This document shows, piece by piece, positions 3,547-56,436 of a stretch of 64,000 nt of DNA (position 1 is the first letter of the stretch; each line of letters opens with the position of its first letter). This stretch comes from Escherichia phage APCEc01. The stretch lies in sequence record NC_029091.1. One strand, 5' to 3'. The translations under genes and the position numbers were made by a program. Under the pieces are notes generated by a model. It did not search any database. It was not told the origin of the DNA and saw only the letters and a program-made list of their open reading frames with translations.

Positions 3547-3558
3547 TATTTATAAATA
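3547..3558. promoter_or_regulatory. palindromic late promoter element TATTTATAAATA serving divergent genes 51 and 26
   Basis: T4 late promoter consensus TATAAATA readable on both strands between divergent late genes. Confidence 0.5.
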
Positions 3559-7348: not shown

Positions 7349-7375
7349 GTCAAATTACCATGTAATAAATATAGT

Positions 7376-23809: not shown

Positions 23810-24574
23810 TTAATTCATAAACCCATCGTCAAATGGTGAATTTTGTCTACCACGGTTGTTAACTACTACATACGGCTCAACGTATTCACTTGCCTCTGAA
23901 TTGATTTGCTCAACTTCAGAATATTCATCGATATTAATGTCATGGATACCGTCAAGATTTCTAACAGGGTTAAGTTCCAAGTCACTAAATTCAGGTATAT
24001 TGATACCTTCATTTTTCTGAAGCACCGGATTGATTTCTTCGCCAGAGTAAATAAACTTGCCTGCAGTAATTTTACGAATCGCATTTTTACCTACTTGATA
24101 GAATGGGTCATATGGTTCAACCCAGTTAATCTCAAACAAACTGTTGTCCATTGGGAAGTATATTAAATCACCTTCCTTAGGCTCCTGATTGTTGACCTGG
24201 TGTTTGAAAAGGCCCGGGTTAATAGATAATGTAACCTCGTCTTGAACTTGCATTCCGAAGTTGCTGAAGAACGATTTCGCTCCTTCATAACCTTCAAAAG
24301 AGTTCAGATATGCAGCAAATTTCCATGCTTTAGTAAATTTATTTTTAAGGTCCTCACCAAAGATAAGGTCCACGGCAACATATTCACGTGGAACATAAAA
24401 ACATTCAATACCGCGCATCTGTATGCTTTCTGCCACTAGAACATCGGCTAATGTCTGACTATTCTCATAATTATTAAAATTGACAAATGGATTGAGGATT
24501 TCGGTCTCATTTGTCTGAGAATACCCACCACGATTTTCTAGCTTGGCGAAAAGATTTTTATCATAAGTTGCCAT
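23810..24574 (-). CDS. 14: gp14 neck protein
   Basis: 254 aa, synteny. Confidence 0.8.
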
Positions 24575-26983: not shown

Positions 26984-28566
26984 TATTTTACCTTAATGAT
27001 ATAGTTTAAAGAAATATTCCATGGACGAGTTTCATTTCCAATTAATTCTGGACGATTCATGGTATATTTAGAGTTACGCTGAGACGCTGGATCAATTTCA
27101 TATCCTTCGTTAGTAAAATATGAACGGTTATCCCAGTCAAGTCCTTTACGAGTACCAACAAAGTTTGAACGACGAGTATTACCAAATGCACCGGAATCGT
27201 CACGTTCGCCAAAACCACCAGCGTGCTTATGATACGACATCTGTTGTTTTTGCACTTCACCGACATATCCACCGGTACAACCTTCCGCCAGACGAGGCTT
27301 ACCGAATTGGTCATTACCATTAACATTAGGGTTAGTTAAATGGTTACCACGACCTGAGCCGCGAACAAATAATCCACGCATATCAGGCAAGCCTGGGTTA
27401 GAAGAGCTACCACCATATCGTGTCCCAATTCTGGAAGCATATACAGGACATTCTGAAGCAGAAACGGTCCCACCATGACAGAAGCGCCAGTCAGAACTCG
27501 GTAAACTATCTGCAGCCCACATTGTAATAGCGCCAACTGGAAGAATTCGGTCCAATTCATTTTGAGTCACAATACGATTGCCTTGAATATAACCACCGGT
27601 CATATTGACATTACCCGTTATATTAGCGCCACCAGAACCAACCGTCAACGTATTATTAATGCGAAGCGTGCCATTAATAGTTTGTCCGCCTCGTTGGTGG
27701 ATAACATCAGCATTCCAAGCAAGGGCAGAAGAACCATCACCACCTGATTGGCTACCCGCTTGTGTAGTTAAACGAACAACTCCACGTAAAGAAGTTGTAG
27801 CCCCACGCCCGTTTAATGTTGCGCCGGTCACTACAACTGAAGAGTTGTTACTATTTACTTCAGTCTGTGTCCCTAGTTTAACGACACCTTTATTAGTTTC
27901 TGATGCTACTGAATTCATAAAGGTATAAGGTGAAATTGCATAGCCTTCACGCAGGGTGCCTTGTTGTGCTTGAGCAACTGTAGCCAAACGAACAACACCG
28001 GTAATAGATTCGGTGGCGTCACCATTATTTGGAGCAATTTGTGAAATAAGTTTAATTGCTAATTGTTGTGTTTTTAACGGGGTCATTGCCGTTGTATCGT
28101 CAGAACCAGCTAATGCCGCAGCAGAAGTTGAAATTTTAATTACACCATTTGTTGCTTCTGTTGACACTTTTGTCTGAAATACATTGTCTATTTTTTGATT
28201 CAATTTAAGCGGAGTAATTGATGCATCGTCAATAGCTCCAGTTACTGCTTCATCTCCAGTAGCATAACGAGTTAAGCCATATTGAGTTTCAGTTGCATTA
28301 GGATATTGTAGACGAGCATTCAGTGTTGCCGGAGTAACAGCTTTACTATTATCTAATCCATCAATAACTTCTTGTGGAGTAGCTATTTGAATAATTCCAG
28401 GTGTAGTAGTTGTTGCTTCCGGTACGCCATTAACACCTGAAGGAGAAATGGCAGCTAATGCGGCTTGGACATTAGTGACTGTGTCTGGAAAATTCGACCC
28501 CGTAGGGTCGAATTCAACGTAAATGGATTCGTTTGAAACGTGTTGGTATGTATTGTTATTACTCAT
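26983..28566 (-). CDS. 12: gp12 short tail fibre
   Basis: 527 aa, equal to T4 gp12; repetitive Gly/Thr-rich N-terminal region. Confidence 0.85.
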
Positions 28567-41196: not shown

Positions 41197-41219
41197 TATA
41201 AATAATAATACTATTTATA
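41197..41219. promoter_or_regulatory. divergent late promoters (TATAAATA on plus for gene 4, on minus for gene 53)
   Basis: plus-strand TATAAATA at 41197-41204 and TATTTATA at 41212-41219. Confidence 0.5.
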
Positions 41220-43191: not shown

Positions 43192-43244
43192 TCGCTTCTA
43201 GCTCCGTATGTTATAATCACTCATAAATTATATGAGGAAAACCT

Positions 43245-43979
43245 ATGGAGCTAATCTTTTTAAGTGGCATCAAACGTAGTGGTAAAGACACCACTGCTGA
43301 TTACATCAATTCAAACTTTAAATCCGTAAAATACCAATTAGCATATCCAATTAAAGACGCTCTAGCAATAGCCTGGGGACGTAGGCATGCTGAAAATCCT
43401 GATGTATTCACAGAGTTGAAATACGAATACTTTGAAGGCATTGGATACGACCGTGAAACACCATTAAATCTCAATAAGTTGGATGTTATTGAATTATTGG
43501 AAGAAGCGCTAATTTATTTGCAAAGTCAATATTTACCGATTAATAATGTTAAAGTATTATCATCGTTAGAAGGTGGATATTCGTATCTAGATATTAAACC
43601 ATATGAAGCCCTGCGTGAAGCTATAAATAATATCAACGACACATGGTCAATCCGCCGTCTTATGCAAGCCCTCGGTACGGATGTTGTCGTTAATTTATTT
43701 GACCGTATGTATTGGGTTAAACTTTTTGCATTAAACTATATGGATTATATTGGAAGTGATTTCGATTACTATGTTGTGACCGATACACGCCAAGTCCATG
43801 AAATGGAAACCGCTAGAGCGATGGGTGCTACAGTTATTCATGTGGTTCGCTCTGGTACGGAATCCACCGATAAACATATTACAGAAGCTGGGTTGCCTAT
43901 TGAAGAAGGCGATTTAGTTATTACAAACGACGGCTCTTTAGAAGAGCTTTATTCTAAAATTGAAACAATCTTAAGGTAA
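43245..43979 (+). CDS. 1: gp1 deoxynucleoside monophosphate kinase
   Basis: 244 aa; P-loop GIKRSGKDT; size and position as T4 gp1. Confidence 0.85.
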   Translation: MELIFLSGIKRSGKDTTADYINSNFKSVKYQLAYPIKDALAIAWGRRHAENPDVFTELKYEYFEGIGYDRETPLNLNKLDVIELLEEALIYLQSQYLPINNVKVLSSLEGGYSYLDIKPYEALREAINNINDTWSIRRLMQALGTDVVVNLFDRMYWVKLFALNYMDYIGSDFDYYVVTDTRQVHEMETARAMGATVIHVVRSGTESTDKHITEAGLPIEEGDLVITNDGSLEELYSKIETILR

Positions 43980-45037: not shown

Positions 45038-45086
45038 GTTTACATGCTGATAGGACTATGTTATAGTAGTCCTATCAAAACAAATG
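45038..45086 (+). promoter_or_regulatory. early promoter embedded in stem-loop (PeSL-like cassette, copy A)
   Basis: GTTTAC, 17 nt, TTATAG inside 9-bp inverted repeat ATAGGACTA/TAGTCCTAT; near-identical copies at 51859 and 53423. Confidence 0.6.
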
Positions 45087-49705: not shown

Positions 49706-49730
49706 CGGAGGACTCCGGTCCTCCTTTTGG
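49706..49730 (+). terminator. rho-independent terminator
   Basis: GGAGGACtccgGTCCTCC followed by TTTTGG. Confidence 0.6.
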
Positions 49731-49747
49731 ATAATAAAGGAGTTAAC

Positions 49748-50350
49748 ATGCGAAACCAAAATAATGATATTGACTCAATGTTCGAAGAGTTCCGAGATAA
49801 GGTAAATCCACCTACGTCTTTAGTTGATTCATTACGATATGTTGCAACCGGACGTAAATGGTACTGGTCGTCTTCTTATGAGACTACTGAGAAAACGGCT
49901 AGCCATAGCAGAAAATCTTTATTAGCCCCAGGTATTATGATTCATGATATCGGAGCTATTGCTAAACTAGTTGCAGACCATGATATTAGATTCACCGATT
50001 TCGTTGCTCCTACATGGTCTGTTTGTTGTTTAAACACTGAATGGGAATATATCAGCGAACGCTCTAAAGATTATTATGGTTTTAGAGATAAGCTTCTGAG
50101 GTCTAACATGTTTTATATTGATACAGAAGTTCTGGTCAATAATAAAAAATACTACTTCACTTTAATCGTCGATTCTGAAACTATGTATGAAGGCGGGCCT
50201 TTGCTTAAGAGAGTTGATGCTTTAAGTGCTATTGATGCGCTTTATGAAACTATGGTTGTTAGTCCTAATTTCACTAACAATTTAATCCTTGAGCAATTTA
50301 TTATGGAATGTAGAGAATATGTCAAAGCCAACCCTGTACATGCCAATTAA
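49748..50350 (+). CDS. hypothetical protein ending in F-I-M-E-C-R motif (200 aa)
   Basis: ATG with SD AAGGAG; C-terminal ...LEQFIMECREY. Confidence 0.5.
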   Translation: MRNQNNDIDSMFEEFRDKVNPPTSLVDSLRYVATGRKWYWSSSYETTEKTASHSRKSLLAPGIMIHDIGAIAKLVADHDIRFTDFVAPTWSVCCLNTEWEYISERSKDYYGFRDKLLRSNMFYIDTEVLVNNKKYYFTLIVDSETMYEGGPLLKRVDALSAIDALYETMVVSPNFTNNLILEQFIMECREYVKANPVHAN

Positions 50351-51847: not shown

Positions 51848-51896
51848 GTTTACAACAAGATAGGGCTATGTTATAGTAGTCCTATCAAAACAAATG
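51848..51896 (+). promoter_or_regulatory. early promoter in stem-loop (PeSL-like cassette, copy B)
   Basis: GTTTAC, 17 nt, TTATAG; gatagggctatgttatagtagtcctatcaaaacaaatg. Confidence 0.6.
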
Positions 51897-53412: not shown

Positions 53413-53455
53413 TGTACAAACTGATAGGACTATGTTATAGTAGTCCTATTAAAAC
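53413..53455 (+). promoter_or_regulatory. early promoter in stem-loop (PeSL-like cassette, copy C)
   Basis: gataggactatgttatagtagtcctattaaaac, nearly identical to copies A and B. Confidence 0.55.
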
Positions 53456-54463: not shown

Positions 54464-54954
54464 TGATTAACAAAACATATTGGTCTAATATAGACGATGG
54501 CAACGAAGGTATTTCATACTATTCAGTAGATTGGACAGGATGTCCATCCTACTTAGTGAAACATATTTGCCAAGAATTTAAAATCGACCAGCCAGCAGGT
54601 ATTATCGTGAACAGATACATTAATGGATATCAACCTATCGATGAAGTAATACGAACAACTCAAGCTGAGCTTGAAAAGTTTTTCAATAAGTGCCAATGGA
54701 TAACAGGATGGATTATATTTGTACCGTCGGTATGGTTTTTTAGTACTAAGGTGAGTTCTTTCGGTTTTGTTGATATTATTGCTATCTTATTAGCATCTGC
54801 TATCGTAAGTATAATTGGCGGTATAATTGGTGGAGGTACTGTAGGCATCATTATTAATCTTGTTAAAAGTAGTTTACAAGAACGTAAAGACAAGATAAAG
54901 GCCAAGAATAATGAAGTTGAACGTTTTATTACCGAATGCAGGAATTTGAGATGA
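54457..54954 (+). CDS. membrane protein, F-I-T-E-C-R C-terminal family (165 aa)
   Basis: C-terminal half hydrophobic (two TM helices, GxxxG-rich); ends ...VERFITECRNLR. Confidence 0.5.
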   Translation: MVMINKTYWSNIDDGNEGISYYSVDWTGCPSYLVKHICQEFKIDQPAGIIVNRYINGYQPIDEVIRTTQAELEKFFNKCQWITGWIIFVPSVWFFSTKVSSFGFVDIIAILLASAIVSIIGGIIGGGTVGIIINLVKSSLQERKDKIKAKNNEVERFITECRNLR

Positions 54955-55187
54955 GTATAGCAATTTACATTAAATCAGAATCATGTGATAGTTATCTGTA
55001 CACATATGATAAAGATGTGTCAGAAGAAAAAATCAAAGACGACCTTAATATGGACCTTGATATGTTCTGTCCTATTGCAGATTACAAACTTGCGGTCTCT
55101 AATAGTGAAAGTCCATCTAAAGAAACGCGCATTGAAGAATTTATGTCCGAATTAATGGCCAAATCATGGGACCGAGATGATGAGTAA
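54951..55187 (+). CDS. hypothetical acidic protein (78 aa)
   Basis: ATGA overlap with upstream gene, SD AGGAA. Confidence 0.45.
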   Translation: MSIAIYIKSESCDSYLYTYDKDVSEEKIKDDLNMDLDMFCPIADYKLAVSNSESPSKETRIEEFMSELMAKSWDRDDE

Positions 55188-55635
55188 GAAAAATAAAGTG
55201 AAAGAACTATCAGCCGGTATTATTTTCCTTACCGAAGATAAAGAATTATTCATGGGGCGTGTAACTGGTTCTCGTCCTAAAGGTGCATTAGCTCATCGGT
55301 GGGATATTCCTAAAGGCCGTGTCGAACCTGGCGAATCTCCTATTGAAGCCGCTATTCGTGAATGCGAAGAAGAAACTGGGTTTACACAATATGACCCTGC
55401 CTTCCTGAAAGACCTAGGTGAACATCATTACTCAGACAATAAGAATATTCATCTGTTCCTATATACCATCCCTGTAGAGCACGAGCAATTCAGAAACAGT
55501 GTTTGTAATTCCTATCATACATTCCCAGACGGACGACAGATTCCTGAATTTGATGCATTCGCTTTAATTAAACCTTCTCAATGGGAATATGTAATGGGTA
55601 AATCATTATATAAGGTGCTCACTACACTCCTATAA
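55177..55635 (+). CDS. nudE: Nudix hydrolase NudE
   Basis: 152 aa; Nudix box GRVEPGESPIEAAIRECEEETGF; immediately upstream of e as T4 e.1. Confidence 0.8.
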   Translation: MMSKKNKVKELSAGIIFLTEDKELFMGRVTGSRPKGALAHRWDIPKGRVEPGESPIEAAIRECEEETGFTQYDPAFLKDLGEHHYSDNKNIHLFLYTIPVEHEQFRNSVCNSYHTFPDGRQIPEFDAFALIKPSQWEYVMGKSLYKVLTTLL

Positions 55636-55642
55636 GTAATAA

Positions 55643-55668
55643 ATACCTCCTATAAACGTGGGAGGTAT
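55643..55668 (+). promoter_or_regulatory. stem-loop sequestering the lysozyme RBS, with late-promoter-like TATAAACG in the loop
   Basis: 8-bp inverted repeat ATACCTCC/GGAGGTAT; 3' arm contains SD GGAGG two nt before ATG. Confidence 0.55.
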
Positions 55669-55669
55669 T

Positions 55670-56158
55670 ATGAATATATTTGAAATGCTTCGTAATGACG
55701 AAGGTCTTAGACTGACTTTATACAAAGACACTGAAGGCTTTTGGACGATTGGCATAGGCCATTTAGTAACAAAGAACCCGTCTTTAGCCGTAGCTAAAGC
55801 TGAACTTGACAGAATGATCGGTCGTAAATGCAACGGTACAATTACCCTTGATGAGGCTGAAAAGCTATTTAATGAAGACGTTGATAAAGCCGTCCGCGGA
55901 ATCTTGGGTAATGCTAAACTTAAACCGGTATATGATTCTTTAGACGCAGTTCGTCGGTGTGCATTGGTCAATATGGTCTTCCAAATGGGTGTAGCAGGAG
56001 TCGCCGGTTTTACTAATTCTCTTCGTATGCTTCAACAGAAACGTTGGGATGAAGCGGCAGTAAATCTAGCCCAATCTAAATGGTATCGTCAGACACCTAA
56101 TCGCGCGAAACGCGTAATCTCAACATTTAAAACAGGAACTTGGAAAGCGTATATATGA
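55670..56158 (+). CDS. e: endolysin (T4 lysozyme)
   Basis: start at [15 protein letters not shown]...; catalytic-site context [12 protein letters not shown]; matches T4 lysozyme as recalled; track ORF starts 4 codons upstream. Confidence 0.92.
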
Positions 56159-56436
56159 AAACATATAGTGAATTTTTATCAGAATCTATTCTTAACGAAG
56201 CTACTGACACATTTGCAACTAAGCTAGGTGCAGCTTTGGTTGAAGCTGAAAGTCTATTAGCACGTATTTCTGAACTTGCTAGTAAGATAGATACTCGCAA
56301 ATTTGAACGTACCAGCGATATCGCTAAGCTTGAAGCCTTGTTGCGTATGTGCGATAAACCAGAAGAAATCGCTAAGAACGGCTCGCTGATGAAACAACGT
56401 CTTGAAAAATATATTTCAGGCGCTTCAGAAAAATAG
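56155..56436 (+). CDS. internal-protein-like protein with [13 protein letters not shown] (93 aa)
   Basis: CTS motif; ATGA overlap with e stop; IpIII/IpII locus position. Confidence 0.55.

Follow-up and report, generated by a model that had tools for sequence, protein, structure and literature searches.

A probable RB69-type orthologue of the T4 lysozyme translational-control hairpin upstream of gene e in Escherichia phage APCEc01

The lysozyme gene e of Escherichia phage APCEc01 (sequence record NC_029091.1) is preceded by a stem-loop that holds the gene's ribosome-binding site in its 3′ arm. We consider it likely that this element, which is of the RB69 type (Mosigvirus), is orthologous to the hairpin that controls translation of gene e in T4, with late transcription predicted to start from AATAAATA. 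The structure, its conservation, the promoter-like motif with its geometry and the folding energetics are shown by the present analysis; coordinates refer to the window, the whole stretch of 64,000 nucleotides that was analysed. Both the mechanism and its conservation are already in print, and the finding is to that extent already known, since the T4 mechanism has been demonstrated experimentally and compared across T4 relatives (PMC3014915).

Results

The nudE–e locus

The locus comprises the following features, given by position in the window.

55177–55635, + strand: nudE (Nudix hydrolase; phrog_1185, 4.4e-74), annotated nudE in RB69
55631–55638, + strand: TATAAGTA, late-promoter-like, 7/8, overlapping the nudE stop codon
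55638–55645, + strand: AATAAATA, predicted gp55-type late promoter (−13 to −6), 7/8, A(−13) variant, equivalent of T4 e promoter P1
55642–55653, + strand: 5′ arm of the hairpin, holding the anti-Shine-Dalgarno (anti-SD) sequence CCUCC (55646–55650) at −5 to −1 of the predicted late promoter
55651–55652, + strand: predicted late transcription start, put 6–7 nt past the last A of AATAAATA
55651–55658, + strand: TATAAACG, degenerate counterpart of T4 promoter P2, 6/8, probably inactive or minor
55654–55657, + strand: hairpin loop AAAC in the MFE structure
55658–55669, + strand: 3′ arm of the hairpin, holding the Shine-Dalgarno (SD) sequence GGAGG (55661–55665)
55670–56158, + strand: gene e, T4-type lysozyme/endolysin of 162 aa, assigned by homology to T4 lysozyme
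56155–56436, + strand: internal head protein gene (phrog_3499, 2.1e-46; RB69ORF127c)

Judged by its sequence the window belongs to an RB69-like Mosigvirus, and the nudE–e region (55177–56200) shares 98.9% DNA identity with RB69 and 99.3% with other Mosigvirus isolates. The nudE–e junction is common to the window, RB69 and T4. Residues 1–161 of the gene e product align with residues 1–161 of T4 lysozyme (E = 2.5e-89), and from this one-to-one alignment we take ATG 55670 to be the true start codon. The original RB69 record (AY303349, 65673) begins gene e at the second ATG, equivalent to position 55685 of the window, which is five codons short of the N-terminus aligned with T4 lysozyme and far from GGAGG; in other Mosigvirus records e begins at the first ATG.

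From ~49.7 kb up to e, genes are packed tightly on the same strand, and this array contains matches to T4-early-like promoters at 51849, 53144 and 53413. A consensus scan of the + strand found no terminator-like site from nudE to e, and from the hairpin at 49707 to e it returned only a weak one, at 54660. We propose that nudE would be the source of the early and middle read-through transcripts that enter e.

On the downstream side, the ATG of the internal head protein gene overlaps the e stop codon TGA (ATGA, 56155–56158). This overlap makes it probable that the gene is co-expressed with e from the same late promoter, and the arrangement suggests that two late functions are transcribed together from the e late promoter and are coupled in translation. 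The neighbour of e in T4 is instead ipIII, and a gap separates the two genes.

A stem-loop that pairs the Shine-Dalgarno sequence of e

The first-pass annotation had described an 8-bp inverted repeat in the e leader, and we find its two halves, ATACCTCC and GGAGGTAT, at 55643–55650 and 55661–55668. A repeat search extends it to nine perfect base pairs (AATACCTCC, 55642–55650, and GGAGGTATT, 55661–55669), and with the U·G, A-U and U·G pairs found by RNAfold the stem reaches 12 bp (55642–55653/55658–55669). Folding of the leader confirms a stable stem-loop of −16.3 kcal/mol with the SD of e inside its 3′ arm (z = −4.54; 0/200 shuffles fold as well), and the hairpin is kept unchanged when folded in a 151-nt context. 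In the read-through RNA the probability that GGAGG is unpaired is 0.00. The stem had been said to end two nucleotides before the ATG; instead, it abuts ATG 55670 directly. Likewise, the motif TATAAACG had been assigned to the loop, where its AAAC does lie, but its TAT and G are bases of the inner stem.

Of the window's 76 candidate start regions, the e leader ranks first by MFE, and none of the others has an SD-pairing probability as high as its 0.87. A perfect 9-bp hairpin is by itself not rare, as ten are present in the window against 4.1 ± 2.2 expected in Markov random sequence. An Rfam covariance-model search of the hairpin gave no match at the gathering score; the sole match, to mir-1912, is a sub-threshold chance match (24 bits vs a gathering score of 72).

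More perfect hairpins, of 9 bp or longer, lie at 45048–45080, 53424–53450, 28491–28515, 5418, 10874 and 28982, and the hairpin at 53424 coincides with a sigma-70-like promoter match (53413–53441). Two other genes in the window have an SD that is predicted to be paired: the dNMP-kinase-like gene at 43245 (~43205–43250; CUCAUA/UAUGAG, pairing probability 0.83) and the ORF at 49748 (49707–49750), which is preceded by a bidirectional terminator-like hairpin (49707–49724).

Late-promoter motifs and the predicted start

T4 late promoters carry TATAAATA at −13 to −6 (PMC1524935). The commonest natural variant in T4 has A at −13 (9 of 50 sites; PMC2988020), and T at this position is poorly conserved among RB69 late promoters (PMC1524935). 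AATAAATA overlaps the base of the hairpin 5′ arm and lies 24 nt from the ATG of e, inside the range seen for TATAAATA sites. When a position 10–45 nt upstream of an SD plus start codon is counted as promoter-like, 5/11 copies of AATAAATA and 10/18 copies of TATAAATA in the window occupy such a position; TATAAANN variants show no such enrichment in the window (5/88 vs the 10/18 of TATAAATA). Besides e, AATAAATA is found 26–43 nt upstream of an inh-like gene (7399), an unknown ORF (47445), an rI-like gene (63301) and a tail-sheath-stabilizer gene (23760); these copies begin at 7364, 47408 and 63267 on the + strand and at 23811 on the − strand. At 3547–3558 and at 41197–41219, two copies of TATAAATA, one on each strand, overlap each other or abut; they are directed towards ORFs on both strands and look like divergent late promoters.

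We place the late start of e at ~55651, from AATAAATA, because this motif is conserved, because the anti-SD falls at its −5 to −1, and because the +1 of TATAAACG would truncate the SD. With +1 at ~55651, the late mRNA would be without the 5′ arm. We infer that the active late promoter in this phage is AATAAATA and not the loop motif TATAAACG, which would be a decayed P2; in naming the latter, the first-pass annotation probably took the wrong one of the promoter-like motifs.

Cost of opening the ribosome-binding site

We calculated the ensemble free-energy cost of opening the segment from SD to AUG (dG_open). In read-through RNA this cost is 15.5–17.1 kcal/mol for the window, against 15.2 kcal/mol for the T4 control. 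It is 5.8 kcal/mol for RNA from AATAAATA (+1 at 55651) and 2.6 kcal/mol for RNA from TATAAACG (+1 at 55664), and the T4 RNAs from P1 and P2 give 4.3 and 0.5 kcal/mol, respectively. Across 26 homologous leaders, dG_open ranges from 7.8 to 18.7 kcal/mol in read-through RNA and from 0.5 to 7.5 kcal/mol in the predicted late RNA. TATAAGTA was rejected as a relieving promoter: its predicted +1 (55644) leaves a 10-bp hairpin and a dG_open of 14.5 kcal/mol, which is no relief, and conservation of the motif does not extend to other genera.

Conservation across e leaders

Protein homology was used to gather gene e leaders from IMG/VR and annotated phage records, and 20 of them, from Tequatrovirus, Mosigvirus, Dhakavirus, Gaprivervirus, Karamvirus, Jiaodavirus and unnamed contigs, were aligned with MAFFT. 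The only long invariant block is ATAAATAC (55639–55646), present in 20/20 aligned leaders and at least six Tevenvirinae genera. Most leaders have A immediately before this block; T4 and Dhakavirus have T there, and a few leaders have G. An anti-SD occupies the five bases after the motif (−5 to −1) in all 26 leaders tabulated, so that the predicted +1 falls just past it. The loop, by comparison, varies between leaders (TATACTCA, TATAATCA, TATCAA.., TATATAAG and TACTAACC), and among the leaders compared a perfect TATAAATA in the loop is found only in Tequatrovirus.

An equivalent SD-containing hairpin is present in every distinct e leader examined, covering at least six genera. The SD core is paired in the MFE structure of all distinct leaders in two sets (17/17 and 20/20); the pattern used to retrieve the 20-leader pairing set demanded ATAAATAC, and that set therefore says nothing on the invariance of the block. 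RNAalifold found no consensus structure for the MAFFT alignment of 20 leaders, because the anti-SD varies by single-nucleotide indels (CCTCC, CTCC, CCCC) that put the two arms out of register, and pairs were tallied sequence by sequence with the SD as anchor. Two compensatory changes emerge from this tally. In Gaprivervirus SP18 a U-A pair in the middle of the SD is replaced by C-G (CCCC/GGGG), and in two leaders (L070 and L089) an inner-stem C-G pair of the Karamvirus type is replaced by A-U. Several one-sided G·U changes also occur among the leaders, for example G55660A in leader L003. The stem extensions differ as well: some groups have outer AAUAC/GUAUU pairs, and the lineages without them have an inner stem extended by UAUC/GAUA.

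There is little covariation, since the two arms are under separate constraints, one from the promoter core and the other from the SD. Conservation of the sequence, taken alone, thus makes the case for pairing look stronger than it is, and there are only a few true compensatory changes. What pairing explains best is that the anti-SD is GC-rich although it lies in a spacer of a kind that is normally AT-rich (PMC2988020). Taken with the orthology and synteny with T4 and with folding energetics that match the T4 control, the conservation and the compensatory changes support the original proposal that the hairpin sequesters the SD of e under the T4 logic, with read-through RNA silent early and translation left to late RNA whose 5′ end falls within the hairpin.

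Discussion

Alternative readings of the hairpin

The T4-type mechanism might operate here with a different late promoter, namely TATAAACG in the loop as the counterpart of T4 P2, and a start at ~55664. This motif sits where T4 has its second, perfect TATAAATA, it matches at six of eight positions including the first six, and the transcript from 55664 has the lowest dG_open of those computed for the window. Its two mismatches fall at −7 and −6, however, and only 2 of the 50 listed T4 late-promoter sites deviate at more than one position (PMC2988020). The loop is also 2 nt shorter than that of T4, so that a +1 at G55664 would leave GGUAUUAUG, a 6-nt leader with only the GG of the SD. The motif is not conserved outside Mosigvirus, being absent from the leaders of Dhakavirus, Gaprivervirus, Karamvirus and Jiaodavirus, all of which retain the hairpin. 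In the window, the other five of its six copies are not upstream of genes, and the end of the copy at e lies 11 nt from the ATG, compared with 14–32 nt for promoter-like TATAAATA sites. We therefore regard it as unlikely that late transcription relieves the hairpin from TATAAACG. The T4-type mechanism put forward by the first-pass annotation is supported by orthology, conservation and energetics, and the part that made the loop motif its promoter is not supported.

Two further readings deny the hairpin a role in translation. It could serve mainly as a Rho-independent terminator or 3′-end stabiliser for the nudE transcription unit, as its GC-containing 12-bp stem begins 7 nt past the nudE stop codon and ARNold called it a terminator in KT184309 (ATK47). 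Yet the tail AUGAAUAU has three U in eight and was not flagged by the consensus terminator scan, Nolan et al. (2006) predicted no terminator at e in RB69, long early transcripts of T4 demonstrably extend into e (PMC3014915), and every lineage compared has the SD of e as the 3′ arm, which a terminator would not require. We rejected this reading for want of a U-tract, and consider termination a very improbable main function. Still less credible is an inverted repeat that arose by chance and regulates nothing, as a by-product of an A/T-rich promoter core beside a strong SD. Chance alone would give about four perfect 9-bp hairpins in 64 kb, and each arm is under its own constraint, from promoter core or SD. 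Neither constraint, however, explains the anti-SD CCUCC, which is atypically GC-rich for a late-promoter spacer; the compensatory changes and lineage-specific stem extensions keep the SD paired, and T4 offers a direct experimental precedent. Pure chance was rejected on the first rank of the e leader among the 76 start regions, on conservation and on the compensatory changes.

Some points weigh against our preferred reading, an orthologue of the T4 hairpin with its late start at AATAAATA. The HMM-based list of 31 RB69 late promoters (Nolan et al. 2006) contains no site at gene e. The spacer just downstream of the AATAAATA octamer is CCTCC and lacks the AT-rich segment that T4 late promoters usually have at −5 to −1 (PMC2988020); since the spacer of T4 e P1 is CCTTC, GC-richness here would be a peculiarity of the e promoter. 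Finally, the predicted late RNA keeps a weaker alternative structure, in which the SD pairs with codons 5–9 (SD P(unpaired) ~0.19). T4 P1 RNA has comparable residual structure, and it is translated.

Comparison with T4 gene e and other known systems

The inhibitory stem-loop of T4 gene e was demonstrated experimentally by McPheeters 1986 (NAR 14:5813), as reviewed in PMC3014915. There, long early transcripts extend into e and form the inhibitory structure, which cuts lysozyme synthesis ~100-fold, and transcripts from either of two late promoters do not include the 5′ part of the structure and are translated well; the late e 5′ ends map inside the hairpin (PMC3014915). Similar leaders, with late promoters in the 5′-strand region, have been predicted in close T4 relatives (Uzan & Miller 2010, PMC3014915, Figure 5). 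As far as the legend to that figure goes, RB69 is absent from its lists of phages with T4-identical leaders, with no structure, or with no gene e.

In T4 the leader reads ttttATAAATAccttcTATAAATActtaggaggtattATG, which aligns with the window base by base. The two loci share the orthologous gene, the nudE–e junction, the SD in the 3′ arm and a stem that abuts the AUG. They also share the ATAAATAC late-promoter core over the base of the 5′ arm, the anti-SD in the −5 to −1 spacer, and a nearly identical computed opening cost of the early leader (15–17 kcal/mol in the window vs 15 kcal/mol in T4). The −13 base is A in the window and T in T4, and a C-G pair stands in the stem where T4 has U·G (CCUCC vs CCUUC). 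The MFE loop is 4 nt in the window and 8 nt in T4. Both T4 promoters are perfect, P1 overlapping the base of the 5′ arm and P2 lying in the loop, whereas the window has at the latter position only the degenerate TATAAACG, 2 nt closer to the SD. The second TATAAATA in the loop is a trait of the T4 group and is not required for the mechanism.

The hairpins of T4 I-TevI, soc and gene 49 (PMC3014915) follow the same logic: long transcripts of early or middle origin have the SD, the AUG or both sequestered, and translatable mRNA comes from a late promoter that lies within the 5′ portion of the structure. They belong to other genes and have unrelated sequences, and are analogues rather than orthologues of the e element. 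An RBS-sequestering hairpin also precedes mobE of Aeromonas phage Aeh1 (Gibb & Edgell 2009, cited in PMC3014915), a different gene in a different phage lineage; gene e of Aeh1 itself is reported to be without such a structure (PMC3014915). Rho-independent terminators share with the window hairpin a stable stem-loop just after a stop codon, but the window hairpin has no U-tract and its 3′ arm is an SD, and read-through is known in T4.

A model for lysozyme control

By analogy with T4, early and middle transcripts from upstream promoters would read through nudE and carry both arms of the hairpin. Such RNA would fold into the 12-bp stem, in which GGAGG is buried and which reaches up to the AUG, so that ribosomes would not initiate and no lysozyme would be made before progeny assembly. 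Late in infection, gp55-RNA polymerase would start at ~55651 from AATAAATA (55638–55645). The anti-SD CCTCC, lying in the −5 to −1 spacer, would then not be transcribed, and the late mRNA, without its 5′ arm, would leave the SD accessible and allow lysozyme to be translated, probably along with the product of the overlapping internal head protein gene. Two parts of this scheme, the inhibition on long transcripts and the late 5′ ends inside the hairpin, are carried over from the experiments of others, which were made in T4 only.

Implications for annotation and for the Tevenvirinae

Several records label the hairpin differently. ATK47 (KT184309 108323–108359, window 55644–55680) carries the ARNold label 'putative terminator' on the same hairpin, and records G2285, G2469 and NBG1 likewise list a terminator under the match. 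These labels are likely mis-annotations of an RBS-sequestering hairpin. For annotation, the value of the analysis lies in three corrections: the hairpin is better not called a terminator, gene e is taken to start at 55670, and the late promoter is predicted at AATAAATA (55638–55645) and not in the loop motif.

The device would keep a lytic enzyme off early read-through mRNA and tie its synthesis to late transcription, and it is a textbook example of translational control via alternative 5′ ends. To this the comparison across genera adds a small refinement, in which the upstream promoter and anti-SD module form the conserved core and the T4 loop promoter is lineage-specific. We lean slightly towards the view that the ancestral and general e switch of the Tevenvirinae is a single module, made up of N-ATAAATAC, the anti-SD in the −5 to −1 spacer and the +1, that the T4 loop promoter is an addition specific to Tequatrovirus, and that Mosigvirus keeps only the decayed TATAAACG. 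If this is true, Mosigvirus would rely for late lysozyme expression on a single promoter, an A(−13) variant whose spacer is unusually rich in G and C.
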